NCBI RefSeq assembly: GCF_964355755.1
Contig: NC_092673.1
Span: 5,456,001-5,520,000 of the forward strand
Source: Antedon mediterranea
Lineage: Eukaryota > Animalia > Echinodermata
Direction of reading: 5' to 3'
Length of the DNA: 64,000 nucleotides
The translations under genes and the position numbers were made by a program. Under the pieces are notes generated by a model, which searched no databases, had not been told where the DNA came from, and saw only the letters and a list, made by a program, of their open reading frames with translations. Of this stretch, positions 1 through 64,000 are shown piece after piece. The number at the start of each line of letters is the position of its first letter. Within the stretch, counting starts at the first letter, position 1.

Positions 1-779
1 TGACATTAATGTTATTCTTATTAATTGTTGATGATTAATGCAAATGTCAAATTAAACTATTAATCACAATGTACTTTAAATATCTCAAATTCTGATATTA
101 GCTGATTCAAACAACAATAGGCATTTACAATTACCATAGTTACTATGGTATTAAAGGTAATAGGTTAGATAATCCAAACCTTTTGAAAACACTACAATAG
201 ATAGTTCTTTGTAATGCCATGTTCGATTCCTAAAGAATGTAAGCTACTGTTTAAATCAATGTATTTGCTGAGTAAATGAACAAATACTTCTTTTGTAGAT
301 TGGTCTATTTATTGTCAAGTGTCCTAGTGAAGGCAGGTACTATACTACAATAGTTATCACAGTGATGCAGCCACGACAAAATAAAGTGGTCAGGTTTTTG
401 CAAGAAAAAGGGAAGAATCTCTGTTAAAGCCACTGAGTTGTCAAAGGCCTCAGGTTGAAACCTTACCAACCATACTGGTGGGTATCGCTATGGCCCTGTA
501 TCACTAAAGATATAGGATTTGAAATGGTATAAAAAGTGCAAAAGGAATTGATGAACAGATACTAATGTCCTATCTTTTGCATTATAATTATCAAAACTCA
601 AGGGAAAGGATGGGGGATGGTGCTGGCTGGCCAACCACATTTTATCCGCCTATTAAAATTACTGTATTACATTAATATACTCTAGAAGCACCAGATTTCA
701 CTAAATTGATAGTAGAATTGGACACAATACTACTGAACCATTTGTAGTACAGCTAAACTTATTTGGTTTAATTATTTAC

Positions 780-3652
780 CTGCTGGTGAGCGTGCATCAA
801 CAGAGCTAACAAATATTCCCAAGCCGTGTTCTGAGCCACCTCTGATGCTAAATCCAAGGCTTCCGCATACCTTCTGTATGGTTATATGACAAAGACTTGA
901 CGGGGAATGCTGGCCTACGTGAACAGATCCTACAGTGTACAAAAAACAAAATACAATACAAATAATATTAGGGGGAAGAGAGAGAGTTTGTATGGTTATA
1001 AAAAAAAATGTGGCTATTGCATGCATCCATACGCATAGGGTATCAAAATGACCAGAATTATACTGGAAATGTATTTGAAAACTGCACTGGGGTATAGTAT
1101 CTTTGCTTGTAAGCAGTACTAAAGTCGTTTTGTTTAACCAATCATTTATTAAATACAATAATATTCGGGTAATGATATCCCAATCATAATAAACTACCTG
1201 TATGAAGTGAAATTTAAAACAAAGAGGTGTACAAAAAAATTTTTTACAAATTTTGTAAAAGTACAGTATGTTTTTCAAATTCAGGGATGTAGGCCTACTG
1301 TAGCTACCGAAATCTGAAGGTGACTAAATTTTGTTAGTACCAGCAGCTTTCAGGAAGACTTATTTAGGGGGATCTTTGACACCTTTTTTTATAGTATTGT
1401 ATAAATATTGTAGATCATCACAACATTTTTAGAAGATGAAATCAATCGATCAGCCAATTATTTATATTCATTGCAAACAGCTGAACATAAGCCTCAAGTA
1501 AATGATATAATTAAAGGCTGATTTGGTAATCATCACATTTATTGAAGCATAAATACTCATTTGCATATTGATTTATTCCATAGAACAGGTGTTTGTATTT
1601 ACCAGGTAGTATTATAATATTTGATTTTTATCACCTGGAAGAGACACATTTGATGTGTATCACAATAGCATTTGAAATTAACTTACAATGACTCATATAG
1701 TATTAATCATACAATTGTTATTATTATTACAGTATAATTATTATAATATTGTATTCAAAATTACAAAAGTATATAATTAATATCATTATACACGGGTAGC
1801 TGTGTAATCTATGCAGATTGAAACAATTTATTGTTGATTTTTTATTTCTCCTTCCTTGACCATTTTTATCTTTGCTATTAATATTATCATCTTTAATTTT
1901 CTCCAATGCAATTTTTAAATTTCTCGTAAATCTGAAATATAAAAAGATGTATGATCAAATATAATCCAGAACATATCTCCATTTAATTACAGATCATGTG
2001 AGGAGCATGTCTTAAGACAACTTATCATCTGAATGACACCAATGTCCTTAGTAGAAAGGTGTTCATACTGTAGAGTATACAGTAATTAAAATAGGTATGT
2101 ATTGATTTGGTAATGAGGAGATCTTAACTGTAATATTGTAGCTTACTGCATTTCATGATTCACTATACGACTATGTTGCTGTCGAGTCGAAAAGTCATTC
2201 ATAAACAAATGTGAGCATGCACAGATCCGTATAAGAAACCAAGAGAACCAGAGATACAGTATTTACTATAAAAACTACTCAATGTTTTGAAATAATAGAT
2301 TGGATTGTATATTCATTCATTTATTCAAACTAAATGAACAGGCCTATACTACAGTGTACAGTACGTAATTCTGATTCTGAAAAGTGCAAATATCGTACTG
2401 TACCTGTAGCTTGATAATTCCTTTATTAAAAAAATAAACAGAGCACTATTCAACATCTTTCATTTCGTACAAATGTATTCGCCTAGTGGTAAACAGGCTT
2501 TACTGTACTGTAGGTAAAAAACTGAATATGGGGCATTTGATAAATTGTTTTTTCTTTGTATTATATTTAGCCAATAGGAGAGCAATGTTACTATCGTCTA
2601 AGGCATTGCCAACGATAGGGTTCTGAGATATTAATGTACTATACAGTATTTATAAATTCCCATGGAATATACAGTACAGTACATCTCCATGTCTTTGTGA
2701 GGTTGTAATTTGTCATTAGACAAAATCCTGACATATGACAGGACTTGAATCCACGATTGGTAGCCAAGCATCATAACCACAACTCCACTACAGTACTACT
2801 ACTGTAGTCAGTAAATTATTGCACATGTACCAGAAGTGGATTAGTGAGGGATTACCAAACCTAAATCTACGGCAGACAAAACAAAAACCAACCTGTTGAG
2901 TATCTTCTTGGAATAACAAACACGTTTGTACGAACATTAGTATAAATCCTAGCCATAATTGGAATACCGTAATACTTAAAACCATGTGTACAAAACACAA
3001 TAAACTGTAGGCCTGTATATGGTGTGAAAACAGCACACAAGAATCAGTTGCTGCTATGATAGACTATCAACATAAATACTAATACAGCATTGATTTGTGG
3101 TGGCTTTGAATATAGATCACATGATATGGTTGGTAAGTGGGGGAAAATCACCAGATGTTAGTCAATGGCAGCAGAAAACAATAGAGTAGTAACAGAGGTT
3201 GTTAAACTGAATGCAAGGATCTTTTGTTTGATTGATCGTGAATATTAGTTGACAGAGAAATACTATATTACATGTGTTGATCACAATACTTTGCATATTG
3301 AAAATCTTAAATTAAATGGAATGGAAAAAGAAAAATTACCATCCGTATTTTGTTCTCGTTTTCTTCTTGTAGTTGGGGAGTATGGGTGGGCCATCTCAGA
3401 GTATGGAGCTAGTTCATCAAACTGCTGCACGTGCGATGATGGAATCAAGGATCGAATTTCCTTCAAAAGGTCTTTCTTTCGTGGAGTATCAAGCGCACTT
3501 TGCAGGCATATCATCAACTTTTCCACGTCTTTATACGTGTGGTACTGTCGTAAGATATCATGTAGATAATCACGTTCTAGATCGGTTAGTAACGAGTTGG
3601 CTTTTCGTTGGAATTTCTTCAGATTCCGCTGTAGGTCTAACGTGGCAGCCAT
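780..3652 (-). CDS. PDZD7/whirlin-family scaffold protein, first two coding exons seen (3340-3652, 780-929); gene continues beyond window start
   Basis: Exon 3340-3652 encodes a harmonin-homology (HHD) domain (ERDYLHDILRQYH...LLKEIRSLIP). Exon 780-929 encodes PDZ1 (LGFSIRGGSEHGLGIFVS). GT/AG sites and phase 1 match. Acceptor at 3737-3738; probable non-coding first exon ends at donor AAG|GTAAGA at 17049. Confidence 0.85.
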
Positions 3653-3999
3653 CTTGAATAGAAGAAGAAGATCCTTTGTGTTTTCTTTAAAAATGTCTAC
3701 ATTATTTTCCGATCATTGCATACTGAATGTGTAGACCTGCAAATAAAATAAATATTAAAAATAATAATAGACATGATTTACTAAATACTATATTTATTTA
3801 ATCTTGAGTACAGTAATACCAACAATACAGTAATTTCATAACAAAAATAATAAAAATATAAACTGTAGTATCCTTTATATTTTCATCGGAACATTATAAT
3901 ACAGTATTTATTTGTTTAAATTTATAAAATTGTTTTTTCTTGCTCTTTATAAATAATGAATAACCACTTTTAACCATACAGTAGGAAAAATTGCCAAAT

Positions 4000-4480
4000 G
4001 GTCAGGTCGTACTTACAATACATTAAAATGCTACAGTACTGTACCTGTTACACCATTTCATTATAACTATGACAACCACATATCTATCCTAGGCTTATAG
4101 TTAGGTTACCAGTAGTGCGTTTCTTGTTCAACAAGGCAAGAACAATTCCCAACAGTGTAAATGTCGTACTTACTGTAAATTAAAATGCTACAGTACATAT
4201 TACACCATTTCATCAAGAACTATGACAACCACATATCTATCCTCTAGGCCTATATAGTTAAGTTACCAGTAGAGCGTTTTTTGTTCAACAAGGCAAGAAC
4301 AATTCCCAACAGTGTAAACGTCAGACTTTATGTACATTAAAATGCTACAATACATGTTAAACCATTTCATCAACAACTATATGTATGACACCCACATATC
4401 TATCCTAGGCCTATAATAGTTAAGTTACCAGTGGCGCGTTTCTTGTTCAACAAGGCAAGAACGATTCCCAACAGTGGAAA
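4000..4480. repeat. Three diverged tandem copies of a ~155-bp unit
   Basis: ttcttgttcaacaaggcaagaacaattcccaacagtg and acatatctatcct recur three times, about 155-160 bp apart. Confidence 0.9.
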
Positions 4481-4879
4481 TGTGAATATTTTAAAATGGC
4501 AAAAGAATCGACTACTGTTGCAGACACACTTGGTTTGTTATGCCAATCAATTTCATAATCAATAAAGAGCCAAGATAAACAGATAATAGAATTGTCTTAT
4601 AATGAAGCTGATCTCGCTAACATCCTCTGTATCCATTGGTTTCCATCCAAAGTTGATTATATCCATGTAATTTTAATTTTCGCTAATGTAATAAGTTTTT
4701 AAAACCAAATTTTTGGCAGACCTTCAAATTCTAATTTGCCTAAAAATTACACACATTTTTAATTTATCAAAATTTAGTGTTATGAAATATTGTGTAATAA
4801 TTGACATATTTTAAATTATATTACAGTACTGTATGTAGTTTTGTACTCTATAGTACAGTATCTGTAGTACAGTATCTGT

Positions 4880-5240
4880 AGTACAGTACTGTAGTACTGT
4901 ACTGTAGTACTGTACTGTAGTACTGTACTGTAGTACTGTACTGTAGTACTGTACTGTAGTACTGTACTGTAGTACTGTACTGTAGTACTGTACTGTAGTA
5001 CTGTACTGTAGTACTGTACTGTAGTACTGTACTGTAGTACTGTACTGTAGTACTGTACTGTAGTACTGTACTGTAGTACTGTACTGTAGTACTGTACTGT
5101 AGTACTGTACTGTAGTACTGTACTGTAGTACTGTACTGTAGTACTGTACTGTAGTACTGTACTGTAGTACTGTACTGTAGTACTGTACTGTAGTACTGTA
5201 CTGTAGTACTGTACTGTAGTACTGTACTACAGTACTGTAC
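4880..5240. repeat. 13-bp minisatellite (TACTGTACTGTAG)n, about 26 copies
   Basis: Near-perfect tandem array read directly; ORF 4811-5362 is its artefact. Confidence 0.97.
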
Positions 5241-5340
5241 TTGGAGTATCTGTACAATAGTATTAGCTTATCAGTATGCAGACTTTTATGTATTGTACAG
5301 ATACTGTAATAGTTATTTTTATGCCTGTCTATCTCCACTG

Positions 5341-6129
5341 TACGGAAGCCCGTTCGGGCCACAAGTTAACTATATTTTAAAAGCTGTTATCTGGCGGCCG
5401 CCACTTAATTATCTGGCGGCCGCCACTTAATAATTAGTACATGTCCCCGTCACGTGACATGTACGTGCATTGGATCAGAGGCGATGATGCATGCAATAAA
5501 ATAGGGAACGCCAGTATTCTCTTCACATGCGGTGACGTCATGCTCTCAAACTATTTCATTAATGCTCTTATACCGCACACCATTATCTTATACTCATTCC
5601 TAATGCTCTTATGTGCATAACTGATGCTCTTATAGTTATACTCATTCTTAATTCTCTTATACTCTTTCTTAATGCTCTTATACTCTTTCTTAATGCTCTT
5701 ATACGGGTCTTATACTCATTCTTAATGCTCTTATACTCTTTCGTCATGCTCTTATATGACTTTCCATGCTCTTATACTCTTTCGTCATTCTAAACTATGC
5801 GACGTATCATGCTCTTATGAGGTAATTAAAAATGCATCGACACATTCTCGACGCACGTGGCGCACTACTTCCAATGTAAAATAATCGACGGCTGTACAAA
5901 TAAGTCTAGGAAAGTTACAATTATCTTAATTATCTGGCGGCCGCCAGATAATTATCTGGCGGCCACCAGATAATTAAGTGGCGGCCGCCAGATAATTAAG
6001 TGGCGGCCGCCAGATAATTAAGTGGCGGCCGCCAGATAATTAAGTGGCGGCTGCCAGATAATTAAGTGGCGGCCGCCAGATAACAGCTTTTAAAATATAG
6101 TTAACTTGTGGCCCGAACGGGCTTCCGTA
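5341..6129. mobile_element. Non-autonomous DNA transposon, probably IS3EU-type
   Basis: Long TIRs TACGGAAGCCCGTTCGGGCCACAAG... / ...CCCGAACGGGCTTCCGTA; 6-bp TSD CCACTG (5335-5340, 6130-6135); subterminal 22-bp repeats containing GCGGCCGC; internal tgctcttata repeats. Confidence 0.85.
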
Positions 6130-6835
6130 CCACTGCTATTTTACAATATGCATAAATAGATCAATACACAATTAACATTTTCTATGCTTTTACCAACTTT
6201 CAGAAAAACCTTAACAAAATTTACATGAATACATGTTAACAACAGCAGTGAAAGAAGTCATAAAAAAGATTTTGAACCATGGAGATACACAGTAACAGTA
6301 CTCTGTCTCAATGTCTATGCATTGCCAAACCCAGGAATGTAAAACACTGTATGGGTAAAATGATGTAATGTGTTACTGTATAATTTAATGGGGGTCCTCC
6401 TCTCCCTCTGGATCCACCTTTTATTATTTTATGTTTAAGTACAGAATATCTTCTGAAGTACTGTATTAAAAAAAGTGGTAAAATTATTTTTTAAATGAAA
6501 TTTTATTGCGATACCTACAGTACAGTACTGTAAGCTGTGATGAAGTGTACAAAATTGTATCATTGTATTAGAAAGTCTATGAATTGATTTTCTATTATGA
6601 GGTTGGCTAACGATGTCATGATCTACCGAAGCAGAATAAGTAGAAGGCTTTGCAGTTTTAAAAACATCGATGGAAATCATTCGCACATTTGTACGCTAAA
6701 TTTGTAATCAATCATATCAATGTCTCACAATTATTACGTTATAAACAACGCATTTCTAATATACTGTATCATACTTCCTGAGAGACATATTTACACCTAC
6801 GGTAGAAAATATCAACAATTTTTGTTTATAAAAAA

Positions 6836-7630
6836 TGTGACGTCCATAAACCCCCGGACTAATTTGGAATAGTCCAAGTACACAAGGTGACAGGGTGGGC
6901 ATAGGTGGCATGAGGTCATTAAAGATTTGCCACATATGAGTGTAACATCTATAAAATCCTTGTCATCATTTATTGTGTATTACTATTCTTAGGTACGTAA
7001 ATATTATTCTCTGTATTATTTTGTATTATAGAGATAATTTCCATAATGTAGTTATTGTTCAGGATGATAGATATTACCCTTGGGATAGATATGTTGTTCA
7101 TACAATATGGTTACAGTTGCGGTTCTACACCGTATAATGAGAGGGTAAGCCAAGGTTAACATTCTTTCCAGGAGGGAACGTCCTTGGATTCAGCATGGTT
7201 ACTATGACAACTAAGATAAGAGTATCATTGTGTTATTTTATAGGTTACGTATGAAGTATAACTTGATCATAGTGACTTTGAGAGTTATATTTGGTATAGA
7301 CACAAGTACAAGTCATGTATTATTTATACTGTATTGATGTTCACCTTGGTATAATAGGAAGGTGAAGAAGTGTTACAGGTTTATTACTTATTTAACACGA
7401 CCTTAGTTGAGAGATAATGCTTCATCGTTAGTATTTTTAGAGTTATGAAATACAGTAGCAGATGTACTGTAGTTTTAAGCTTACTATGTTTGATGATAAG
7501 AGGTCCATTAAAGATTTGCCACATATGAGTGTAACATCTATAAAATCCTTGTCATCATTTATTGTGTATTACTATTCTTAGATCTCTCAACGACGGAAAA
7601 CATCCCTGTACTCATTGACCAGGGGTAACA
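6836..7630 (+). repeat. 5' LTR (795 bp)
   Basis: Matches the 3' LTR by eye except for one 5-bp indel; internal ~75-bp direct repeat. Confidence 0.97.
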
Positions 7631-7633
7631 TTT

Positions 7634-7652
7634 TGGAGGCACTGCCCGGATT
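7634..7652 (+). promoter_or_regulatory. Primer-binding site, probably tRNA-Thr
   Basis: TGGAGGCACTGCCCGGATT, 3 nt after the LTR; resembles the complement of a tRNA-Thr 3' end (TGGAGGCACCGCTGGGATT, recalled). Confidence 0.6.
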
Positions 7653-7663
7653 CATCTGAAACT

Positions 7664-8782
7664 ATGGCTGAAAGAGAGGAACAGAATGTGGAAGGTGACG
7701 TCAATCCGGTTGAGAATCAGGACGATAATGGTGCTGAGGATGCAGGAGTAAATATCGGTTTACAGGAGGAATATGAAAAAAAGCTACGGGACATGATGGC
7801 AGCGCATGAAGAACAACTGAAGAAACTACAACAGAGCTTTAAAGAAGCTGCAAATGCTAAGCCGACGACAGTAGTTTCTAGAAGGGACTTCAGGATGAGT
7901 GGCCAAATTGGTGAGCCAGGCCAGAAAGACCGATTAGCATTTGGAAGTTTGATTCACCAAATTGAATCTGGCAAGAGCCGAGGATACAGTGATCAGGAGA
8001 TTATTGAAGCTGTTATTAAAGCAATAGTACCAGGTGCGTCACTCCGGAGCTACTTAGAAGGTAAACTGGGGTTAACTCTGCCCAAACTAAGAGCTATCCT
8101 TAGGGCTCACTTTGGAGAGGAAAATGCCACAAAATTGTTTCACCGACTATCAAGTGCGGTACAAGATCCAAAAGAAACCCCACAGACATTCCTTCTGCGG
8201 GTACTGGATTTAAAACAAAGAATCTTGTTTTCTTCGCAAGAAGAAAACTCTGGGATCAAGTATGAGCCAAAGCTGGTTCAAAACATGGTCAGGCAAGCCC
8301 TTCTAACTGGTTTCCAAGAAGACGAAATCCGATCCGAGATAGCACCACACCTCAAACGAAACATCGAGGATGAGGAAGTAATGGATGCGCTTAATATAGC
8401 GGTAAACAATTACCAGGAACGTTTGGCTAAACTCAAAGCAGGAAGGACTAAAGTTTGCAAAGTGGATGTGGATGAATCTTTGAGAAAGGGATCAGGTTGT
8501 GAAAAGCAAAATGAAAACAAACGTTTTGAACTATTCACTCACGAGATGAGGGACATGTTACAGGCCGGATTAAATCAAATTCGACAAGAAGTGGGTGTAA
8601 TTGGTCAACAACAAGCCACGACCCAGAACAACAACCACGGAAACCGGCCTGCAGTTCGGGCATGTGATGGATGTCGCACACGTGGTACCAGATGCAATCA
8701 CTGTTTCAAGTGTGGAAGCAGTGAACATTTTGCTCGTGGTTGTCGATCCCAACGCAGAAATCAGGCGGGAAACGAGCAGTGA
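7664..8782 (+). CDS. gag: Gypsy Gag (capsid plus CCHC zinc knuckle)
   Basis: 372-aa ORF just after the PBS; QDPKETPQTFLLRV capsid-like motif; CFKCGSSEHFARGC knuckle. Confidence 0.93.
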   Translation: MAEREEQNVEGDVNPVENQDDNGAEDAGVNIGLQEEYEKKLRDMMAAHEEQLKKLQQSFKEAANAKPTTVVSRRDFRMSGQIGEPGQKDRLAFGSLIHQIESGKSRGYSDQEIIEAVIKAIVPGASLRSYLEGKLGLTLPKLRAILRAHFGEENATKLFHRLSSAVQDPKETPQTFLLRVLDLKQRILFSSQEENSGIKYEPKLVQNMVRQALLTGFQEDEIRSEIAPHLKRNIEDEEVMDALNIAVNNYQERLAKLKAGRTKVCKVDVDESLRKGSGCEKQNENKRFELFTHEMRDMLQAGLNQIRQEVGVIGQQQATTQNNNHGNRPAVRACDGCRTRGTRCNHCFKCGSSEHFARGCRSQRRNQAGNEQ

Positions 8783-11700
8783 TCACCCAGACGGGACGAG
8801 GCGTGATCAATTCTACCGAAAAGTCCCCTTATGTAAATAGTTTGCCAGGATACATAAATCAAATAGGACATATTAATCCTGTTCACCATCAAAGACTTGT
8901 CAAACTGGTGGGCCGAAAGTGTATCGTAAATTGTAAATTAAATGATGTAAATTGTAAGGTTCTCTGGGACACCGGAGCACAAGTTTCATTGTTGCCGACG
9001 ACCTGGTTAAAGACACATTTTCCAAACCAGCAACTGAGAGACCTAAAGGAACTACTGGATGATACAAACCTTGAGCTAAGTACAGCCGATGGAACGAATC
9101 TTCCATTCGACGGATGGACTGAGGTGTTTGTTGAATTATCGTTGGATGGAAAATCCACACAGCAGGTCAGAGTTCCTTTTCTAGTTACTAAAACAAATCT
9201 AAGTGAACCAATAATCGGTTACAACGTTGTGGAACATATAATAATGGGTCCGGCTCGACTACATCCGAATGCCATAAAAGCGTTTCCAAAGTTTCATAAT
9301 AAGAAGGTAGACTGTTTAATAAATTTGGTCAAGGAAAACACTGGCACTATGGGCACTGTTACGTTCGACGGAAACGATGTTGTCATCAGGAAAGGAGAGA
9401 CAGTTTCAATAAAATGCCGAGCCTATATGGGAACAAAAGATAAAGTTATGGCTATGTTTGAACCGAGCGTTGAAAATCTTCTATCAATTGGACTAGAAAT
9501 GTACGATACTGTTGTTGAAATACAAGGAAATTCCTGTAGACTGTATGCGCATAACCCAACACCACACGAAATTATGCTGAGACGGAGAATAACCGTTGGA
9601 CATGTGGAAGGAATACAAAGCGTATTGTTACCTACACAATCAAGAACGGAGTATAGCAAGAAAAAAGGCGACTCTCAAAATCCAACCACCAAAGTTACAG
9701 TAGGAGCTACAACCTCGGAAGGCGGTACGGACGAATTATGGGACCCGCCTGTGAGTCTAGACCACCTTACCTCGGAACAACAGACGGTAGCCAAACAAAT
9801 GCTACGCGAGGAGTCAGCTACTTTCTCAAAGGGAGACTTTGATATTGGGTGCTCCCCTGAATTACAAATGAGCTTACAACTTACTGACAATATCCCTGTA
9901 CAGAAATCATATACTTCAATCCCTCGACCGTTGTATGAAGAGGTAAAACAGTACATTCATGAACTTTTAAGCAAGGGGTGGATCAAGAAGTCACAGTCTT
10001 CATATTCATCTCCAGTAGTATGTGTCCGAAAAAAGGACGGCAGCCTTAGATTGTGTTGTGATTTCCGTGGACTTAATTTAAAGACTGTACCCGATAGGTA
10101 TCCGATACCAAGAATGCAAGATGTACTCGATGGCCTCAGTGGACAAAAGTGGTTCTCAACTTTGGATCAGGGAAAAGCCTATCATCAAGGATTCATATCT
10201 CCCAATAGCCAACCCCTAACCGCTTTTGTGACTCCATGGGGATTATTTCAATGGAACAGGATTCCATTTGGTTTGAAAAACGCACCTGCGGTATACCAAA
10301 GGTTTATGGGAACAGTACTAGAGGACATTAATCATCGAATCTGTGAGGTGTACTTGGATGATGTCCTGATCTACAGTCAAAATTTTCATGAACAAGTGGA
10401 GAACATTCGAAAAGTTCTGCAACGATTCCGACAGCACGGTGTAAAAGTCAAACCTGAAAAGTGTAGCCTCTTTCGGAAAGAAGTGCGGTACCTAGGGAAG
10501 GTAGTATCCGCAGAGGGGTATCGACCAGACACCAAAGACATTGTTGCCATGACGTCATTAAAACAAAAGACACAAAGGACAGTTGGCGATGTGAGGAAAG
10601 TACTGGGACTGATTGGTTACTACCGACGTTATATAAAAGATTTCTCAAAAAGGGCGAAACCCATTTTTGACCTTCTGAAGAAAGATTTACCCACGTCACA
10701 AACATCGTCAAAGAAGATAAAAGGTCAAACATCATCAAAAACCCCTATTGAATGGACAAGAAATCACCAAAGCATATTGGATAAATTCATCGATGAATTA
10801 GTGAGTGAACCCATATTAGCTTATCCAGATTTTTGTTCACCATTTGTGTTACATACAGATGCCTCGATGGATGGTCTTGGAGCAGTACTTTATCAAAGGC
10901 AAAACGGAAAAATGCGAGTTATTGGGTATGGTTCCCGATCTCTAAGTCCCTCAGAGAAGAATTACCACTTACACTCCGGTAAACTCGAATTTTTGGCTTT
11001 GAAATGGGCAGTGACTGAACATTTCCGTGACTACTTGTACCATGCACCGTCATTCACGGTTTATACAGACAACAACCCGCTGACCTACGTTCTGACATCG
11101 GCGAAACTGAATGCCACAGGTCATCGATGGGTGGCAGAACTTGCCGATTTTCACTTTGACATTAAATACAGGCCGGGTAAATCTAATATTGATGCTGACG
11201 TTCTGTCGAGGATACCTCTTGATATCGACCGCTACATCAAAGAATGTATTTCATGTATATCAACGGATACTATCAAAGCTATGTCAAACGGAGTGTTTGC
11301 ACTGCAATCCGGCCAAGTGACGCTACTTTCTGGAGTTTCAGCAAACCCAACCGATAATGAACCAGTAACACCTGTGACCAAACATTCCTCGATATTTTGC
11401 CCCGCAGATATCCTCCAAGAACAGCGTATGGATGATACAATTTTAGCGGTAATACCATTTGTCGAAAGAAACCGACCGCCAACTAAAAATGAAAGAACGA
11501 AGTTATCACTTAAAACCAACCTATTACTACGACAGTGGAAAAAGTTGAGACTAGATGACAACGGAAATCTTCGACGAGAAACATCGGATCGGTCACAGCT
11601 AGTTCTACCGCAACAACTAATTTCTAGAGTGCTAACGGAGCTGCATGACAACATGGGTCATTTGGGCGTAGAGAGAGTACTTCAAATGGCACGGGACAGA

Positions 11701-13268
11701 TTTTATTGGCCAAAAATGCAAAAAGACATTGAGGACTACATCACCAAGCGTTGCTCCTGTATTAAGAAGAAGAAGCCGGTGAGAAATGACAAAGCTCCAT
11801 TAAGACCAATAAGTACAACTGAACCATTTGAGCTGGTCTCTATTGACTTCCTTCACCTAGAGCGTAGTAAGGGCGGGTATGAGTATATCCTAGTGGTTAT
11901 GGACCACTTTACCAGATTCGCAGTGGCCTACCCAACTACAAATAAGTCTGGAAAAACCGCAGCCGACAAAATATTTAATGATTTTTGTTTAAAGTTTGGG
12001 TTTCCTAAACGCCTACATCATGACCAAGGACGGGAATTTGAGAATAGTTTGTTTTACTACCTCCAGAAATATTCAGGTGTGGAACATTCCAGAACAACAC
12101 CATATCATCCACAGGGAAATGGGCAAGTGGAGCGGTTTAACAGAACGTTACTCTCCATGCTCAGAACACTGGAGGATGACCAGAAACCGGATTGGAAGAA
12201 CCATTTGACCAAACTTGTACATGCTTATAATGCAACCAAGCATGACACGACGGGTTTCTCTCCTCATTTTCTTTTATTCGGAAGACAGCCAAGATTACCT
12301 GTTGATATACTTTTCAACTTGTCGCGATCGGGTCCAGAGAAAACTACTCCACAGTATGTGCAAGCATGGAAACGGCAGATGAAGGAAGCATACCAGATTG
12401 TCAGAGAACGGGCAGGAATAACAAGTGAGAACAGCAAGCAACGGTACAATCGGAAAGCCCACGCCATTACTTTACACCCAGGAGATCGCGTATTAGTAAG
12501 GAAACTGGCACAACCAGGTGGTCCTGGAAAGTTGCAAAATTATTGGGAAAATGATATCTTTAAGGTAGTACGACAGCAAGGGGATTTACCAGTATATATC
12601 GTAAAACCCGAATGTGGAGTTGGCCGGACTCGTACACTACACCGAAATCATCTTCTACAGTACCTTGTGATTCTTTACCGTCAGAAGAGCGACTACAACC
12701 TAAACCAACATCAACCAAAAAGAAATGCATGCCGAAGACACAGAATGCACAACACACTATGACAGATAGCGAGCTGACAGATGGCGATGACGAGGATAGA
12801 TGGGATAGTGTAGGCCAAATTGAACCGACATTGGATAACAGGGTAAATGAAACAGATTCTTCAAGTGATACATCAGCGATTTTAGATCCGAATGCAACTG
12901 CATTTATACCACCCCGACTACAGTTTGTCGATGAAACTGACGTACCGCAAATTCAGGATCTGGCACCAAACATGGATGAACAGCAATGTTTCGCTGATGA
13001 CAGGTCGAATGAGGATGAATTAGTTGATCAACTACAGGAAAATGAGAACAGAATTTCCAATACTGGTAGTGTAGTAGAGGAAGCAGAAGACCGGCCAATC
13101 CGAAATAGGCGTCCACCTCAAACACTGACTTACAGCACCATGGGAACGCCTGACCCATCTTGTATGAAGATAACAGAAAGCATCGACAGAACAAGCGAAA
13201 AGCAGCGGAAACTGAATTTTATATCGTATCTATTTATACCCCAGTCGTGTCGGTTGTTCGGCAGTTAG
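8767..13268 (+). CDS. pol: Gypsy Pol (protease, RT, RNase H, integrase), reached by -1 frameshift; C-terminus disrupted by a 5-bp insertion at 12658-12662
   Basis: LWDTGAQVS, YLDD, LHTDAS, HHCC and DDE integrase (SIDF, HHDQGREFE, GQVER). ORF 8740-12762 joins ORF 12612-13268 when CAGTA is removed. Confidence 0.95.
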
Positions 13269-13403
13269 TTTACCGATGATATGGCCGTGATGTATTATAT
13301 AATATTTTTTTCGTTCTTCAAACGTGTTTTCCTTTCTCATTATGTACATATTCGTAGATTAAGTTTGAAATGCCGTTACGTCATTTTTTTTAGTGGGGGA
13401 GGG

Positions 13404-14203
13404 TGTGACGTCCATAAACCCCCGGACTAATTTGGAATAGTCCAAGTACACAAGGTGACAGGGTGGGCATAGGTGGCATGAGGTCATTAAAGATTTGCCA
13501 CATATGAGTGTAACATCTATAAAATCCTTGTCATCATTTATTGTGTATTACTATTCTTAGGTACGTAAATATTATTCTCTGTATTATTTTGTATTATAGA
13601 GATAATTTCCATAATGTAGTTATTGTTCAGGATGATAGATATTACCCTTGGGATAGATATGTTGTTCATACAATATGGTTACAGTTGCGGTTCTACACCG
13701 TATAATGAGAGGGTAAGCCAAGGTTAACATTCTTTCCAGGAGGGAACGTCCTTGGATTCAGCATGGTTACTATGACAACTAAGATAAGAGTATCATTGTG
13801 TTATTTTATAGGTTACGTATGAAGTATAACTTGATCATAGTGACTTTGAGAGTTATATTTGGTATAGACACAAGTACAAGTCATGTATTATTTATACTGT
13901 ATTGATGTTCACCTTGGTATAATAGGAAGGTGAAGAAGTGTTACAGGTTTATTACTTATTTAACACGACCTTAGTTGAGAGATAATGCTTCATCGTTAGT
14001 ATTTTTAGAGTTATGAAATACAGTAGCAGATGTACTGTAGTTTTAAGCTTACAGTACTATGTTTGATGATAAGAGGTCCATTAAAGATTTGCCACATATG
14101 AGTGTAACATCTATAAAATCCTTGTCATCATTTATTGTGTATTACTATTCTTAGATCTCTCAACGACGGAAAACATCCCTGTACTCATTGACCAGGGGTA
14201 ACA
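13404..14203 (+). repeat. 3' LTR (800 bp)
   Basis: Copy of the 5' LTR with an extra CAGTA at 14052-14056. Confidence 0.97.
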
Positions 14204-14732
14204 AAAATAAGATGGCGTGTTATTTGGTCAGCCATTTTACGGCGGTTTTAAACTAAAATTTAATTTATATATCTCTCATGTTCTACTACTGTAGGAATTC
14301 AAATCTAATTTTTGCTGTGTTGTTTATTCACATTTAAAGGATTCATACAAAATATTTTTAAAATTTATTTTTAAAAGCTTCCATATCCATTATAAAACCT
14401 TCAAAATTGTGTACAGTAGTGATAAAAAAAATATCAGCAAATTTTATGGAGTTACATGTATACATTCAGTCTCCATGTGAAATATTTAATAGTCAGCAAC
14501 ACAATACTTCCATAATGTTACAAACAGCAGTCTCTTCTCCATGGCAACAACAACTGTTATTTCAACAAATAATACAAGAAATATTTTCAGACATTTTTGC
14601 TCATATTAAATAAGTAAATTACACAATTCCAAAGTAATACTGTATATAAATTTCAATCAGATGCTATAATCGTTACTAAATTGTTTAAAATAAGGATTAT
14701 TATGATTGTTACTGTATATCATAATGTTATTA

Positions 14733-14752
14733 CAGGGAGATACATCTCCCTG
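14733..14752. mobile_element. 20-bp P-type mini-hairpin or excision footprint
   Basis: CAGGGAGATACATCTCCCTG flanked by 7-bp direct repeat GTTATTA. Confidence 0.65.
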
Positions 14753-15782
14753 GTTATTATTAATACTGTACAAAATTGTTACAGTAGTACTATTCATATG
14801 GCAATAATGCATATGTTTTGATCATGTTCAGAAAGACCTTTTGACTTGACAGCTGCTTAGTACGGCATAAGGGCATGTCAATATCATTTAAAATGAACGA
14901 TTTATGAATCATCAACACTAACCATATAAAATTAAAAATTCTAGTATACAGTGTAATCAAGGCAATGTAACAGCTCTCAGATCAAAGGGTTTAACTGTGG
15001 CTGCGACACAATCATGATAAACCCCAGCCTTACAGACACTGCATGCCACGGAGAATATGTACAAAGTACAGTACTGTTAGTCTTTGTCGCAGCCAGACCA
15101 AGGATCAAAGGACTGTTATGAGTTTTTATCCTGGCAAGATGAGCACACTGTCCTGTTGTTAGATTGCCATGTTGTAATATGAGATTAAAAGATGCGAGTT
15201 TAGTGGTGACTGAACAGTAATCTCAGTTGAATTAGGAAGAGTACAGTAAAAGCATTGAGATGCTGCAAAAGGAATAGCAGTAACAATGAACAAACACATT
15301 CATTGCGGTAATAGAGTACATTTCAGTCAGTGCCGACTATGGCTAGACATAATACTGTAGACCCATTCAAGATTTGATATTTGATGCTAAAAATGTTTAT
15401 GGTAGATGAACAAGTACATAACTACAGTACATTCAGATTTTAAAGGATATCTTAAATTACATAATAGTTTCTCTTTAAATCAACAATTGTTGTGTGTAGC
15501 AGCTAAGTGACAGAAAAGTTTATGTTAAGAATAGGTGTAAATTGGTATCATTGCATCAAGTTAAGTACAGAATTACTGCAGAAGAGACCAAATGTCTTTT
15601 GTTCAGACATGGTTTAAAGGTCTTAACTTTTTTCTTAACTTTTTGGTTGAACTAAAATAACGTACTATTTACTTATACTGTACTGTATACAGTATAATGA
15701 CATATAATTTACAATGCCTGCTGTATTCAAAGATAGGTATAAAGTACAATACAGATTATACAGTACATCATAATGTATGATA

Positions 15783-16275
15783 TGATTCAATTCAATTCAA
15801 TTTATTTATTGCTGCAAATGCCATCAAGGGCTAATATCCGCTTAAACATACTACATACAAACATATACATATTTACATTTAAAATTTAAACACATAAAAA
15901 TTATAGTCATTACTATACTGTTGTAGTTATTATTTTTTTAAATTATTGTAATTGTTGTTTTTATGATTATTGTTATTGTTATTATAATAATTAATATAAA
16001 TGTAATAAATTATAGGTTACATCTTAAGGGCAGTTTTATTGTGAAGCATTGTGAAGCACAGAGAAGGAAGACACGTTAAGATGAAACGATTGAGCGAGTG
16101 AGAGTGAGTGAGGTAGAGTAGAGTGAAGAAAACGAGTAGAGTGAAAAAAACGAGTAGTATGTCCTTTAAAGGGAAGATAAGAAAAGTGTCGATTATGGCG
16201 AAGGACGAACAGGAGGAAGAAATGAACGAAGAGGGTGTTGAGGAGACTGCGTGATAGCACAAAGAAATTTAGGTA
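15783..16275 (-). mobile_element. 5'-truncated CR1/L2-clade LINE 3' end
   Basis: Minus strand reads ITQSPQHPLRSFLPP / YLPFKGHTTRFFHS across a frameshift (typical ORF2 tail), then an AT-rich 3' UTR ending aataaataaa(ttgaa)n. Confidence 0.5.
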
Positions 16276-16352
16276 AAAAATACTGATGCCTTAAAGAGAG
16301 GGAAATAACAGGGCTTTATTTCTTCATGCTTAAATCATAGAGAAACTTAAAC

Positions 16353-16379
16353 CATGGACCTATAAATTAGAGGTCCATG
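16353..16379. mobile_element. 27-bp P-type mini-hairpin or excision footprint
   Basis: CATGGACCtataaattagaGGTCCATG flanked by 7-bp TSD CTTAAAC; near-identical copy at 50783. Confidence 0.7.
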
Positions 16380-17048
16380 CTTAAACTAAGTAAGGATCAC
16401 ACTTAGCGTTAACGTACATTGTTGATTTAATCAGTTTATTGTGTGAGTATTAACAATGAGGTAAAAAGGGTATTCATTCACTATTGGCTCTTTTATTAGG
16501 GATTAGAGACTTATCCCTATGACATCAGATCATGGAGAAATTCCTTTAGACCACCCCCTGTACATGTACTGTAGGCGTACAATACATTTGCACATGAAAT
16601 AACAAATACAATCAAACTTGTAGATTGTGTTTTGTGATGAAAATCAATACAGTAATTAACATGTCATTGCAATATATTTGAATTCAAAAAATAATTAATA
16701 CAAATTTTAAAATCCTTTTAAATTTAACTACAGTACTTGTTTATAATATAAATATTCCCAGGGAGATCCCTAATATTCCGTACACATATTTTATTTCAAA
16801 TTAATTGTTCAGATAGTGATAATTCTGAAATGGTGCAAATCGCTCATATTACGCTACTACATCGGTTAATAAATAATACTAGGGCCTAGGCCTAGGCTAT
16901 AATATGCATTGTAGTATTACCACCAGACTGAGCTAAAAAACTAACCAACTAACTCTCTGGGCCCCTACCTAATATTATTCGTGACAAATGCAAAAAACAA
17001 CTTGCTCTAACATAATCAACATATCTAGTATATGCATCCACTTCTTAC

Positions 17049-17353
17049 CTTATTGATAACAAAACATGTTCTCAAAATTAAACGTTAAATACAGTATTCT
17101 CATTCTTAATTTTTGACCGCGTATCCATAGACGCTCAAACGAAAGTGACTTACCCTATTAACCCCGTGTTAATATTACGCTCGTTCATCATTGGTTGATT
17201 TGTCAATTGCGTAACCTTTGAACTTGATATAGAGTAAAAACACACAAAACAAAAACACGACTGTGTGTGAGTCCGCGAGACTTTGTTTACTGTTTGAAAT
17301 ATCAAATTAAATTGCAATTTTACATTTTATATGCATTTAAATAACTTGGTAAC
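17049..17353. promoter_or_regulatory. Probable bidirectional promoter, PDZ gene / FAM204A
   Basis: Minus-strand donor at 17047-17048, CCAAT box (attgg ~17190), CpG-richer patch, FAM204A ATG at 17354. Confidence 0.5.
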
Positions 17354-18978
17354 ATGCTTTCAATATTACCGCCCGATATGAGCGATAGTTCAGACGATAT
17401 ATCATCATCTGATCAGTCGGAAAGCGATCATCTTATAGCTAGGCCTAGGCCGCAGCAGGATGAAATGGATTCGTCGTCGTCGATGACAGAAAATCAAAAG
17501 GGGAAAACAGTCGAGCCTCCACGAGGAGTATCAGGAACTCATTGGGAGGTAGGCCTAGCCTAGATAATTTATCAATAAATCCACAAAATCAATCTTACGG
17601 TATATATGATCATATGAAAATGAGTAGGCCTAGGCTAATTTATATTTTCTTTGTTTTTTTATATTTGTATGTAGAAATTTTTAGAACTTAAAAAAGGTAG
17701 AGAAGCGATCCCTAGTTCGTCTACCACAGAAGTACTGCAGAAAAATCGTAAACGAAAGCGAAAAAGGAATCGAAAGAAAAAAGACAATGTAGAAGGTCTG
17801 TCGATAAAGTAGCCAATTTTTTTCTATTCAAAATGAGTCACATAAGCACATATACTTTATACTAAATAATTAACCATTCGGCATTAACTTTTTTTTACAG
17901 AATGTTGTAGAAAAAAAGAAGTTGGCCAACTTTCTGGATCCAGTCTACCGATTGGTCCTCAACTTCCAGGACAATCCTCCAGGCATCTAGGCCCATTACC
18001 AGGTCAGCCACCTGGACAGGAGTGGAAAGATGTCAAGCAATATTTAGGAGTCTATGATCGTTTCAAAGGCGTTGACTATGGAAAAGTATCAGAAATGGTG
18101 AGATATGTATAAAACATTAAGGTTGGTCTATAAAGCTTTGTCTACACTATCAAACTAGTTTGTGCCCAAATATGGTAGTTCTATGACATCATCCTCATCA
18201 TGTCTATATGATAAATAATACTTTTAATAGCCAAATGTATTTATTTTTATTTGAAGTCCGATACTTTTTAATGTTTTATATATTTTATTGTATTGCATCA
18301 AGGAAAACAAATTTCATGTTCGCCTTGTTGTGTTCATGATAATAAAGATTTATCTTATCTTATGTATGTATGTCTATACATCACATTTTTTTGTCACAGA
18401 AACTAAAGTTTGATAGTGTAGACAGAGCTTTAAGATCCCAAACATTTTTTGAAAGCCGGATTCAAAATTCTCCCAAATGTATGAGTTTTCACAGATCCAA
18501 TGTCATAAATTTCCAGACAATTAAAGTATTGTATGTTACAAAGGTACACTTCAATTAGGTACCATAAGTAATAGTTAATAGCCAAGTGTATTTATTTTTA
18601 TTTGAAGTCTGGGTTGGAGAAAGAGATAAACAGTGCAATAAAAACTAAAGATTTTCAAACTGCGGAGAATTTGAGTGATCGTCTATCCAACAGAGACTTT
18701 GGTACCAAAATTCACGAAGCCATCAAAGCCAAGGAATATGTTGAAATCAAAGAGGCAAGTTCTGTACATTTTTCTGTTTCCCCCAAAATTGCTGATATTC
18801 TTCTGCCCATCATAGTAGAGGGCGCTATAATATTTTTGCTTTAATTGAAGAATAAAAATGCTTTTATTTCCAATCACTTTAGAAAGAAAAAATGGAAAAA
18901 TCAAAAAAGAAAAAGAAGCAGAAGCTAGCTTGGAGATTTGAGGTTAAAGAAAGATGGGAAATGAAAGGAAATATGTAA
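17354..18978 (+). CDS. FAM204A: FAM204A homologue, 5 exons (17354-17548, 17675-17795, 17901-18097, 18608-18754, 18883-18978), ~251 aa
   Basis: WKDVKQYLGVYDRF, SGLEKEINSAI...LSNRDFGTKI, C-terminal KKKKQKLAWRFEVKERWEMKGNM; phases consistent; intron 4 is GC-AG. Confidence 0.9.
18134..18429. mobile_element. PIF/Harbinger-like MITE family A (TIR AGCTCTGTCTACACTATCAAACT), copy with internal insert
   Basis: TIRs at both ends, TAA/TTA flanks; further copies or fragments at ~22622, 27731, 41963, 42490, 44330, 52250, 62905, 63770. Confidence 0.8.
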
Positions 18979-19740: not shown

Positions 19741-19812
19741 CGCCCCAACCGAGACTCGAACTCGGACCGCCTGCTTGATATGCAGATGTCCTAACCATTA
19801 GACCACTGGGGC
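19741..19812 (-). tRNA. tRNA-like gene, anticodon ATC (Asp); possibly a pseudogene or element-borne
   Basis: 72 nt folding into a full cloverleaf (GCCCCAG/TTGGGGC, GTCT/GGAC, TCTGC/GCAGG, CCGAG-TTCGAGT-CTCGG), G discriminator, TTTTT just downstream; atypical A32 and A34. Confidence 0.6.
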
Positions 19813-20006
19813 TTTCATGGTATTGTTCAAACTCGATTGGAAAGCGACTCTTTAACATTCTCGGCGTGGTATGGCGGAACAGTACTAGTCCTCAGTTGTA
19901 CGCACGCGCACCAGAGATCAAATTGATACGCCCTCATCTTTAGCTACACCGGGGGGGGGGGGGGGGGGGCACACTAAACTATTACATGATTATTTATCAC
20001 ATTATT

Positions 20007-58815: not shown

Positions 58816-59205
58816 TTAAAGATATATTGTCCCCCTAAAAAAATAATAATTGTTTACATTTTTTGTTGTTGTTGTTGAATATGCCATTTTAATATCACAT
58901 AATAGTTATTTTTTGTTGTTGTTGTTGAATATGCCATTTTAATATCACATAATACCGTAGTTATTCACTTTGACCAAAAACTGGATAAAATTTTCTGAAA
59001 AATGTAATTTAAAGAAAAATAAATTGTAAATTTGGTTGAAATCATGGAGTAACTCCATGGTTGAAATTAACCATTTCTTTTGTCTTTTTATGAAATAATT
59101 ATTTTTTTTTAATTTTTGATTCTACAGAAGTGAATAACTTGATTAAAACTGCAAAATGGTCTATTCAAAATCTGATTTTATTAATCTTTAGACAATACAT
59201 TGTTA
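58816..59205. mobile_element. TTAA-flanked Kolobok-like MITE
   Basis: ttaaagatatattgtcccc ... gacaatacattgttaa; related copies at ~43410-43650, ~49440-49735, ~54120-54300. Confidence 0.6.
59043..59059. mobile_element. 17-bp P-type mini-hairpin or excision footprint
   Basis: CATGGAGTAACTCCATG flanked by 8-bp TSD GTTGAAAT; absent from the sister MITE copy at ~49580. Confidence 0.7.
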
Positions 59206-60068: not shown

Positions 60069-60120
60069 ATGGAGTTAGAAAATATTGTTGCAAATACGGT
60101 GTATTTGAAAGCAAGAGAAG
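60069..60120 (+). CDS. G protein-coupled receptor kinase, GRK4/5/6 subfamily, first coding exon
   Basis: MELENIVANTVYLKARE(G), 52 nt, followed by GTAAGT; matches the conserved N-terminus of GRK4/5/6. Confidence 0.92.
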
Positions 60121-61531
60121 GTAAGTAAAACTTAGCAGTTATCTGAATCCTAATGACAGTCTGTTAAATTAGTGAGCTAAATATTATTCTTTGCTTCTCG
60201 GGTGCTGGTCAAATTATCGCTGGCCACTAAGCCACTAAGCGGTGAAAGCGGAGCTCTTTTTCCTGTATGGTGCACATTCTCCCAGGCTAGCGTTCGGCCT
60301 AGCCTTGAAAATACCCAATACGCAAATTGTGAGGTATAAACACATAGTTTTACTAGCCTAGACTGTATAGTTGAATTGCCCTACTCGTTTTTGTGCTACA
60401 GCAGTACAAAGATTTTGCATTGCACGTAACAGTATATATATATAGGCTATCTCAAATTTTTATTTCACAAATAAATATATTTTTAATTTATTTATATAAA
60501 TTATTATTTAAAGCAGCCTAGCTAGAGAGTACAGTACTACAGTAGGCCTAGTTATAGATGCTCAGGTAGGGTAGGCCCTTTCTTATTGCCAGAATTGGCA
60601 AAAACAATACTACACAGTGTTATTCTATTTACTGTAAAGATTAAGAATCAGTTTCAATACAGTTATTGTTTCCAAAGTTATTTGACCCGCAGTAGGTAGA
60701 TGTGAAATGCATTACCAACAAATTATTAATACTAATAGATCGTATAGATAGACGCATATATTATATTACTTCAATTAAGAGTCAATACATGAAAAAGTAT
60801 TACTTTTGTTAATGTTTTTTTATATCTTGTACATAATTTAGTTTACGTTTCCTTGTACTGTAGATACTGTAGGCCTATTTTTAAATCATTTTTTTTCCTC
60901 TAACTTTAATTTTACTTACTCTGGACGCACTTTCATTCAAGAAGTGTACCACTGTTTCAAAAGTGTAGCCTCCAAATAAATTATTATTATTATTATACAA
61001 TGCAATAATTATTTTATATGTAATACACGATATAGAGCGCATTATAAATGTTTTTATTTTTATTTATTTTAAATCAGTTCAGTTTACAGTACAGTGCAAG
61101 AGAAAATGAGCATGGAATTGTATAGCTTCATTGTGGAATCAGGAAGTGAAGCTACCTGTTTACCTTCCCAATTGACCTTGATATTTTTTTTTTGGATACA
61201 TTGATTAAAAAAGAATTTCAAACTTTTAATAAAATAATGAATTTTACAATTCGGTGGTGACCGATTGCAAAATGTATGTTTGTTTAAATGTCGACAGTAT
61301 GATCCTTCGGTAGTGACACACCTTGCTGGTTCACAAAGGACATTGGGTTAATTATTGAGAGTACAAACTTCAGAACATAGTCCAAATTGAAAGTTTGTAG
61401 AGGTTATGAAGCAAGCTTTATAGTAAAAGCACAACCTACTGCTAGGACCAAAGTTTCTCAGCTACAAAAATCTAAAAGTTGGCTGCAGTATGTACAACAT
61501 CTTAGACAATGGCCAAGGTTAACCCTGTATA

Positions 61532-62396
61532 GGCCCGTTCATATCGAACTTAGGGCGAGATAAATTTACTATGATTAACGAGATGATGTTGCCATAACTT
61601 TGATGTGAACGAATTATTAGGGCGAGATGAAGGAATTTCCTCAACTACGGTCAGTCAAGGCCATCGCCTCGATGGAATAGTAAATCCACTTGTAAAGCTA
61701 GAAAACGATTGAGGTAATTAACACCAATACACCAATCATATTAAAGCAAATTTCAACTTTGACATATAAACATCAACAAATTAGCTTTATTTCTGAACCA
61801 CATGTTAACCGAGAGCGACGATCTGTCATATTACTATTTTAAAACTTATTTCAATACAGTACATCTGTACCGCATTCATCATGTCCGAAAAAGTAAAAGC
61901 GAAGACAAAAAATGTTACATCTAGGCTTGTATGAAAAAAAACATGATCTCCCCAAGTTCGCGCTGTTGTTCCTCGGCATATCGTACAGTAGGTATCTGAG
62001 CCGTCGTCAACTAACGCAAACAGCAGCAAAGCAGTACCTTCATCTAGTTCAGTGTCGTGTCATCATTAATCATTTGTAAAAATATAGGTAAAAACCCCGA
62101 TAATAATAATAACTGAGGAAGCATTGTGTCGACGGATCGTTAAGCAGTACTCGAAAAAGAAGAAGGTGGTAGAATGGGTGCGTATACACACAAGGAATAG
62201 CCCACAATAAAGTGCCCTAACCTGTTCAACTGTACTTCCTGTTTGTGTCGGCGGGGTCGCGAGCATGTGATGCTTAAGTTATCTCGCCCTAACATGAGCC
62301 GTCGAACGCAATTTAATGAATTTAATCGAATTACCGCTCTCGTAAAATTTAACTAGATCAGTACTTATCTCGCCCTAAGTTCGATATGAACCCAAC
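61532..62396. mobile_element. Non-autonomous PIF/Harbinger-like element, ~860 bp
   Basis: TIR gttcatatcgaacttagggcgagataa / ttatctcgccctaagttcgatatgaac, with subterminal ttagggcgagat repeats. Confidence 0.75.
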
Positions 62397-62674
62397 TTTT
62401 GAAACAATATACTCATTGATTTAAATTTTAGAGATGTAACTACAGTAATCCAATAATTTGCATTAAATGAATGCAAGGTCAATCTGAAATATCTGCTTAA
62501 ATAAAAGACCATAATCAAAGTGAATGCCAGGAAATTAAACATAGTGGTTTTGTTCATATTGATTTGGATTATTTACACATAAAGCTAAATAATCAACCTT
62601 ATTGATATTGTATTACTGTAAGTACAGCATGGACATATTGTATTAGATATTACTCTTTGATTGGTATTATATAG

Positions 62675-62900
62675 TAGTACAGTATTTTTGTCTGTGTAAA
62701 TTGTTTATCTAAAGTTTAACCATATTCATTTGTGGTAATTTCGCTGTAGACCTAAGGTAGAGGGTACAGTATTTTTTCTGTGTAAATTGTTTATCTAAAG
62801 TTTAACCATATTCATTTGTAGTAATTTCGCTGTAGACCTAAAGGCAGATGGTACAGTATTTTTTCTGTGTAAATTGTTTATCTAGTTCAACCATATTTAG
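62675..62900. repeat. About 2.5 tandem copies of an ~88-bp unit
   Basis: gtacagtattttt..ctgtgtaaattgtttatcta recurs three times. Confidence 0.85.
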
Positions 62901-62904
62901 CTGT

Positions 62905-63054
62905 ACTCTGTCTACACTATCAAACTTTATGCAACAAAAAAATGTGATATACTGTATACTGTAGACAGGATGATGTCATATTTAAGCATATCACTACCAT
63001 ATTTGGGCATGTCACTTTTTTGTCATTTTGTAGTTTGATAATGTAGACAGAGCT
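62905..63054. mobile_element. MITE family A copy carrying TACTGTA motifs
   Basis: TIRs; interior reads gatatactgtatactgtagacag where other copies have gatgtgcccatatatgga. Confidence 0.75.
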
Positions 63055-64000
63055 TTAGACTATACAGTATTAATTTGTACTTATTTATCTCCAATCCTTC
63101 TTATAAACAACACACCAAGTTCAAAACTCAGAAGACCAAATTGGCCTAGTTAAAATACCTCCCATTGTGAATTAAACAGTGTAGTAGGCTATAAACTAAT
63201 CGACAAATATAAAGCCAATCAGACCATGAACACTACCTCCTTGGGAGCTAATTATGAGTCTTAGAAATGTACAATAGTAAAACTTGAATCTCTACCCAGA
63301 GACCGATTACACTGGACGTTCCATTTCCTATTCTAGTAAAATAAACTAGTTTGAACTTTTCAAATAGTTCATGTGCATTACATATTACAGTAGTTTGTCT
63401 TCATGCATATCCGACTACCTTGTCTGGTATACAGTACCTTCATTAATTATGTAGTTTGAGGTCATACTATACTTATAAAGGATGTTGTGTATGTTCCTTG
63501 GTGACAGTATGACTGACCACTGACCAATTCTCGAAAATATTAATTTTTAAGTGCAGTACAGTATTATACTATAGTAGAATGAATTTTACCAAATTATAAT
63601 TTGAACAATAAAATATTAATAATATAGTTTATACAATCAAGTGCACAATTATGAATGTTAATGACTTGAAATGGGAAAAATATTTTCATGAGTAAAGATT
63701 CACTCTACCTCATCTGAATAGAAACAGTAAGGCTTTTTCAAATGAAAATTCAATAGATCTCCACCCATTTTGTTGTCACATAAAGTTTGCTAGTGTAGAC
63801 AGAGCTTAAACAGCTTTTACAAAAAGTTGAAGTACTAAAAGTTGATAAGTGCCTTAATACTACAGTTAGTATAGTACAATGGAATATGAAAAATTAAGAA
63901 TGGCAAGTTAATTTGATGAAACTTGCTTCATTAATGACCTCTCTCACAAGGTCACATTAAACTAATAAATTAGTCTCTTTATAATTAGCTAATTAAGGCT

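Follow-up and report, generated by a model that had tools for sequence, protein, structure and literature searches.

Five-base insertions at TA sites build up in a 64-kb window of the feather star Antedon mediterranea as probable excision footprints of Tc1/mariner-type transposons

The heptamers TACAGTA and TACTGTA (together TACWGTA) recur at high density in a 64,000-nucleotide stretch of the Antedon mediterranea genome (assembly GCF_964355755.1, contig NC_092673.1, positions 5,456,001 to 5,520,000; hereafter the window), which raises the question of what process writes them there. A preliminary description of the window read them as pervasive, apparently ongoing 5-base insertions at TA dinucleotides, left by excision of Tc1/mariner elements ended by CAG. 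In this study, we analyzed the abundance, register and distribution of the motif, its presence or absence between sister copies, and its state in sequencing contigs. We conclude, with a probability of about 0.8, that TACAGTA and TACTGTA enter as 5-base insertions at TA and are excision footprints of Tc1/mariner/pogo-type transposons with predicted CAG...CTG ends.

The window contained 163 TACWGTA motifs, compared with a mean of 13.5 ± 3.6 and a maximum of 21 in 100 shuffled sequences. A single 13-bp satellite at 4822-5255 supplied 59 of these matches (36%), which the preliminary description had not separated out, although its impression of very dense motifs in non-coding DNA held after correction. 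We masked four tandem arrays, the 3' long terminal repeat (LTR) of a retrotransposon and the extra repeat copies, leaving 57.6 kb, in which 95 motifs were observed and 16.7 were expected under an order-2 Markov model. Under this model TACWGTA was the most enriched of all 32 TA-NNN-TA classes. When the background was modeled without the motif itself, about 12.5 were expected, giving an overall expectation range of about 13-17. Long open reading frames (ORFs) contained 3 motifs in 10.7 kb, and the remaining sequence contained 92 in 46.9 kb.

The motifs were concentrated in two zones. In unique non-coding DNA, the density was 5.6 per kb at 1-17.3 kb (47 in 8.4 kb), 0.76 per kb at 17.3-60.1 kb (25 in 33.1 kb) and 4.5 per kb at 60.1-64 kb (17 in 3.7 kb). 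These results confirm the peaks noted earlier at 1-17 kb and 60-64 kb and indicate that the motif is patchy rather than pervasive (regional heterogeneity, p=3e-10). Zone 1 (1..17300), where motifs make up 5.1% of TA sites, likely comprises the introns and 5' region of a minus-strand harmonin/whirlin-like gene, based on a USH1C_N match at 3284-3712 and a weak PDZ match at 775-1323. Zone 2 (60121..64000; 4.1% of TA sites) is the first intron after a short coding exon at 60069-60120, which we take to encode a GRK-type N-terminus. Both zones are likely gene 5' regions. A 94-bp satellite array, by comparison, held no TACWGTA among its 358 TA sites.

The form of the motif pointed to TA as the target. 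The other four cyclic registers of the pentamer showed no enrichment (observed/expected 6/7.2, 3/8.5, 11/6.7 and 5/7.2), indicating that TA itself is targeted. CAG and CTG centres were equally common among the 95 masked motifs (51:44, p=0.54), and the two are reverse complements, as terminal inverted repeats (TIRs) would give. At the base adjoining the target, T was avoided (32 vs 58.4 expected, p=1e-5) and G/C was favoured (G, 42 vs 30.4). The motif had also been called often stacked: 7 adjacent pairs were found where 1.6 would be expected if motifs were independent, a weak signal because that expectation ignores regional clustering. Of the 88 motif clusters, 82 were single units. One-mismatch neighbours of TACWGTA numbered 273 against 197-222 expected, an excess of about 50-75 beside about 80 for the perfect word, suggesting that older, decayed scars likely exist too.

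Sister copies within the window differed by exactly five bases at such sites. The two LTRs of a Ty3/Gypsy retrotransposon aligned with 795 matches, 0 mismatches and one 5-base gap; the 3' LTR carries TACAGTA at 14050..14056 (plus strand) where the 5' LTR carries TA, and this is their sole difference. The 95% upper bound on LTR divergence was 0.002 per site, so the 5-base event is recent, which supports the word "ongoing" in the preliminary description. In the same element, TACAGTA at 12656..12662 (plus strand) breaks the pol frame: homologues align in one frame to 12657 and in another from 12660, and 6 of the 12 listed have a second match in the other frame that begins at 12660-12669. In 87 of 116 homologues (120 examined), the last conserved motif is followed by two residues that here are encoded in that other frame. 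The continuation of the homologues indicates that the extra bases at 12656-12662 are the derived state. A third site lies in a repeat that we measured at 157 bp, whose copy 1 carries the stacked TACAGTACTGTA at 4032..4043 (plus strand) and is five bases longer than the other two copies, a single unit being present in copy 2 and a one-mismatch form in copy 3. Finally, RNF103-like paralogue C has TACTGTA at its splice donor (37867..37873, plus strand), which makes it five bases longer there than paralogue B (28082). This donor is the weakest case, since the exons match at only 70% and the alignment extends over about six intron bases. All four differences had been proposed in the preliminary description, and all four stood, most clearly the LTR pair and the break in the pol frame.

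A further insertion had been overlooked, in which copy 2 of a 50-bp tandem duplicate carries TACCGTA at 58953..58959 (plus strand) and copy 1 carries TA. At 12656, 37867 and 58953 there was no local motif template within 300 bases, the nearest other copies at these three sites being 1239, 761 and 339 bases away. Nine pairs of closely related repeats contained 17 gaps in all, of which two were 5 bases in length, each of them the TACWGTA scar; the 66%-identical RNF103 last exons, TIR arm pairs and two multi-copy alignments were omitted from this count as unreliable.

These observations (enrichment, TA specificity, 5-base sister-copy differences, equal centres and two-zone clustering) fit a scheme whose steps we modeled on the known Sleeping Beauty pathway. 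An element would insert at TA and duplicate it. On excision, a 3-base overhang (CAG) would be kept on each flank, and the overhangs would pair around one central mismatch, so that joining gives TA-CAG-TA or TA-CTG-TA. Each jump would leave one scar, which persists until it is erased by point mutation; even at ordinary activity, scars would therefore come to far exceed the resident copies in number. Open chromatin in 5' gene regions is likely the preferred target, and stacked scars would then likely be amplified by slippage into the 13-bp satellite. According to the available text of two reports, the canonical Sleeping Beauty footprint consists of the terminal three bases between TAs and arises from end-joining of 3' overhangs (PMC6943129, 10.1101/659086). 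The 7-mers are the same TACAGTA and TACTGTA, with a net gain of five bases at TA and both centres, as the preliminary description had recognized. Its footprint reading thus fits the exact canonical sequence, the TA target, the 51:44 centres and a second scar that matches a resident element, while its claim of hyperactivity is not supported.

The rate of scar birth was estimated by rough arithmetic from about 80 excess scars in 47 kb and a scar lifetime of about 1/(7 x mutation rate). On this estimate scars would arise at roughly 1% of the substitution rate, or 3-5% in hot zones, and would supply roughly 1% of non-coding bases. Assuming a mutation rate of 5e-9 and a genome of about 300 Mb (contig totals 265-410 Mb), this corresponds to roughly 0.02 scars per haploid genome per generation. 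About a thousand mobile copies, each moving at 2e-5, would suffice, and would yield about 0.2 copies per 64 kb, so the absence of an element from the window says little. Because ordinary transposition of such a family is enough, neither hyperactivity nor the missing resident copies needs special explanation, and the phrase "major mutational force" was overstated. Overall, the build-up of scars is real, recent and likely ongoing.

Other TA-targeting families would leave other centres. A non-coding element at 5341..6129, with 95-bp TIRs, TA on both sides and ends CGG...CCG, has exactly the ends that would leave TACCGTA and so matches the insertion at 58953; it contained no Pfam match of note. 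Its end was sought in metagenome contigs and none was found there; five looser-pattern CGG-end matches in viral contigs had no inverted partner and were rejected. The word TAGGCCTA, frequently located close to likely gene starts, had 20 occurrences where 0.6 were expected, and TAG[GC]CTA occurred 16 times against 5.3. Positions of TAGGCCTA include 1290, 16887-17632, 23845-23911, 26676-26805, 60543 and 60870. Four TAGGCCTA and three TAG[GC]CTA cluster at 16887..17637 around a likely gene start, as a candidate third scar type, and three TAGGCCTA with one TAGCCTA lie at 23845..23965, on the 5' side of the first coding exon in RNF103-like paralogue A. A GGC overhang from a predicted GGC-ended element would yield TAG[GC]CTA by pairing around the middle base and TAGGCCTA via the terminal GC, which makes TAGGCCTA a candidate for the scar left by an element ending in GGC or GG. 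In the window TACATGTA was not enriched (3 vs 2.3 expected). TACACTA and TACCATA were mildly enriched but lie inside a repeated miniature inverted-repeat transposable element (MITE), and so were not counted as scars.

Several results weigh against reading the motif as an excision footprint. No CAG-ended inverted-repeat element was found among TA-flanked pairs in the 64-kb window, and Pfam searches of its 188 short ORFs revealed no transposase. A search for TA-CAG...CTG-TA arms up to 6 kb apart yielded ten pairs, mismatched at 2-3 of 14 bases; all were AT-rich or motif-built and were rejected as chance. Shorter Sleeping Beauty footprints were not enriched (observed/expected: TACATA 58/69, TACGTA 1/6.4, TACTA 146/133, TATA 508/522). 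In the available portions of the sources, such shorter products account for over half of Sleeping Beauty footprints in human cell lines (10.1101/659086), although in zebrafish and mouse cells the canonical form predominates (PMC6943129). The direction of change between the LTRs is unfixed, as a 5-base loss between two TAs would look alike. At 14050 and 4037 another copy of the motif lies 17 and 5 bases away, so that local copying is possible. At 62899-62907 (plus strand) the end of a MITE contains five extra bases of the pentamer although no TA is present at the site, a case at odds with the footprint scheme. TACCGTA is one case with weak enrichment (6 vs 2.3-4.3 expected).

Polymorphism weighs on the same side. 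Contigs were examined from four sequencing runs (X1-X4) of one sample, possibly the assembled individual. No CWGTA indel appeared among the 12 rows listed of 17 for 1-4810, which comprised +3, +2, -2, -2, +26, +4, -2 and five split rows at 4322-4324, nor among the 12 listed of 131 for 13900-32090, mostly high-copy repeats. Across all 24 listed rows no indel of CWGTA, the signal expected of the footprint reading, was present. Of 64 listed contig pieces, 20 were gapped and none was shorter by five bases. Two carried a clean, unexplained gain of five, 14326-15008 (X2) and 1902-2144 (X4); a third, 2178-4134 (X3), fits a loss of eight plus a gain of five. The inserted letters were not visible in any of the three, and a further +5 piece was accounted for by other letters at 4322-4324. 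These two or three alternate contigs, whose letters were unseen, suggest a +5 polymorphism peak. Contigs with alternate single-nucleotide polymorphisms crossed the motif sites at 2760-4094 gap-free, indicating that most scars are likely common to both haplotypes. At 1886-2144 the contigs represent three or more sequence versions at roughly twice the usual depth, so that this stretch is likely duplicated elsewhere.

Could the pentamers instead come from a host process unrelated to transposition, in which, for example, a domesticated transposase or templated end-joining inserts a fixed pentamer where TA sites in open chromatin are broken? The window has no source element, the product is very uniform and lacks short footprints, and one pentamer insertion sits at the non-TA site 62899-62907. 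Trichoplax adhaerens, according to the accessible part of PMC2871265, also has the ACAGT repeat at promoters with transposons judged inactive. We nevertheless consider this explanation unlikely: the several centres (CWG, CCG and GSC/GGCC) point to several donors with differing ends, and one centre matches a resident element, and at about 0.2 expected copies the absence of a thousand-copy family is weakly informative. The extreme form is equally doubtful, in which the CAG-ended transposon is gone from the genome and a host transposase-derived or end-joining activity writes pentamers into TA sites of open germline chromatin. The same low standing applies to its corollary that the mutator is common to crinoids and placozoans, generates DNA beside promoters and gives rise to satellites. 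The spread of a pre-existing pentamer by replication slippage and by fold-back copying would account for the 13-bp satellite and perhaps for the stack at 4032-4043 and the LTR case, where another copy lies within 17 bases. As the source of the scars in general these two processes are improbable, because 82 of 88 clusters are single units, the three template-free sites had nothing nearby to copy, and slippage would not single out the TA register. The adjacent template expected of microsatellite slippage was present only at the satellite and perhaps at 4037 and 14050.

The clustering in likely 5' regions could also mean that TACWGTA is a selected protein-binding motif and that the 5-base differences are incidental, and binding was proposed for ACAGT in Trichoplax (PMC2871265, in the text available). 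The motif, however, occurs as a frame break within pol coding sequence, is present in just one of two otherwise identical LTRs and arises as a whole 5-base block rather than via substitution, which leaves this account very little probability. That the insertions are assembly artefacts is refuted for the bulk of motif sites and would be extremely surprising for the remainder. The sites 12656, 14050, 37867 and 58953 are absent from the contig rows listed, and the four runs may come from the assembled individual. X1 contigs, however, crossed 2760-4168, 14985-15814 and 16351-18157 without difference and thereby carried 20 motif sites unchanged, including 4032-4043, which X2 and X4 contigs also crossed gap-free; the motif is therefore no assembly artefact. 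Excision of a CAG-ended transposon thus remains our preferred reading.

The remaining features of the window are as follows. The Gypsy element (6836-14203, plus strand) was confirmed by its paired LTRs, the 5' LTR at 6836..7630 with 3 motifs common to both and the 3' LTR at 13404..14203 with 4, and by Pfam domains in the order protease, reverse transcriptase, RNase H and integrase. It is very young, with a gag-like ORF at 7619-8782 and a pol broken near its end, and each LTR contains an internal 82-bp direct repeat. The 13-bp satellite (4822..5255, plus strand) consists of 32.8 copies of AGTACTGTACTGT and is built of the scar pentamer. Three tandem RNF103-like E3 ligase paralogues occupy 20007-39500 on the minus strand. 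The long last exon at 20010-21548 was 100% identical to an Antedon mediterranea RNF103-like protein (next, Anneissia japonica, 61%), and paralogues B and C have diverged to 36% and 32% identity to A in the last exon. The 94-bp satellite (32100-35748, 3.65 kb) lies between B and C and has 90-, 94- and 95-base variants; one unit bears a 6-base insert that is an inverted copy of its neighbour. A TAF1B/Rrn7-like gene (41010-48054, minus strand) and an MFS transporter gene (48635-56950, plus strand) have a common divergent promoter near 48100-48400.

A high-copy MITE family with AGCT(C/T)TG ends, TAA/TTA flanks, internal 21-bp repeats and very high contig depth appears Harbinger-like, judged by its flanks. 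Its copies lie at 18131-18432, 22617-22757, 27728-27885, 41957-42096, 42496-42657, 44298-44405, 52252-52368, 62906-63060 and 63766-63810. Further non-coding inverted-repeat elements, none CAG-ended, were found at 26152-26330, 26965-27169, 47132-47471, 52804-53166 and 61537-62391. The sole Rfam match, a tRNA-like sequence at 19741-19812 (minus strand) within a high-depth bin, may be the head of a short interspersed element.

Several known systems resemble this one in part. Unlike Sleeping Beauty scars, those of the crinoid are natural, germline-fixed and dense, occupying as many as 5% of the TA sites in the two zones; the window has no excess of short footprints, and the source element is only predicted. 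The pogo element Passer, as described in the accessible text of PMC9976928, targets TA, favours AAGTACTT, with G-TA-C preferred, and is biased toward gene 5' ends. The flank bias in the window runs in the same direction but has little strength past the first base. In cells, Passer leaves footprints of 0-4 bases, and no Passer-like element was found in the window. In Trichoplax, no simple repeat near genes is commoner than ACAGT, which was interpreted as a possible binding site (PMC2871265). The pentamer is the same, lies near gene starts and can expand into tandem arrays. It is described there as a microsatellite, the word "footprint" being absent from that paper, whereas the crinoid copies are mostly single units. 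Rice genome comparisons, in the portion available, treat natural DNA-transposon excisions, including those of Mariner, as a source of sequence change (PMC4423477); those excisions are varied and often delete flanks, whereas the crinoid has one fixed scar that reaches the top of the k-mer ranking. In a feather star genome, DNA transposons are the largest repeat class, according to the available text (PMC13079724). In the literature covered, mainly outside subscription journals, we found no publication describing how TACWGTA or TAGGCCTA accumulates naturally across a genome. The scar itself is textbook, and its build-up in the window represents a new scale for it.

If this reading is right, a short word that ranks among the commonest in this genome would document the earlier comings and goings of transposons instead of serving as a regulatory motif, which would call for caution in motif-discovery studies. 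The scars would provide a readable map of germline transposon landing sites, likely marking open chromatin at gene starts, and the end sequences of still unfound families would become predictable. They would also constitute a defined mutational signature that causes frameshifts and lends itself to counting in populations or pedigrees, and would offer a possible origin for the unexplained ACAGT repeat of Trichoplax.

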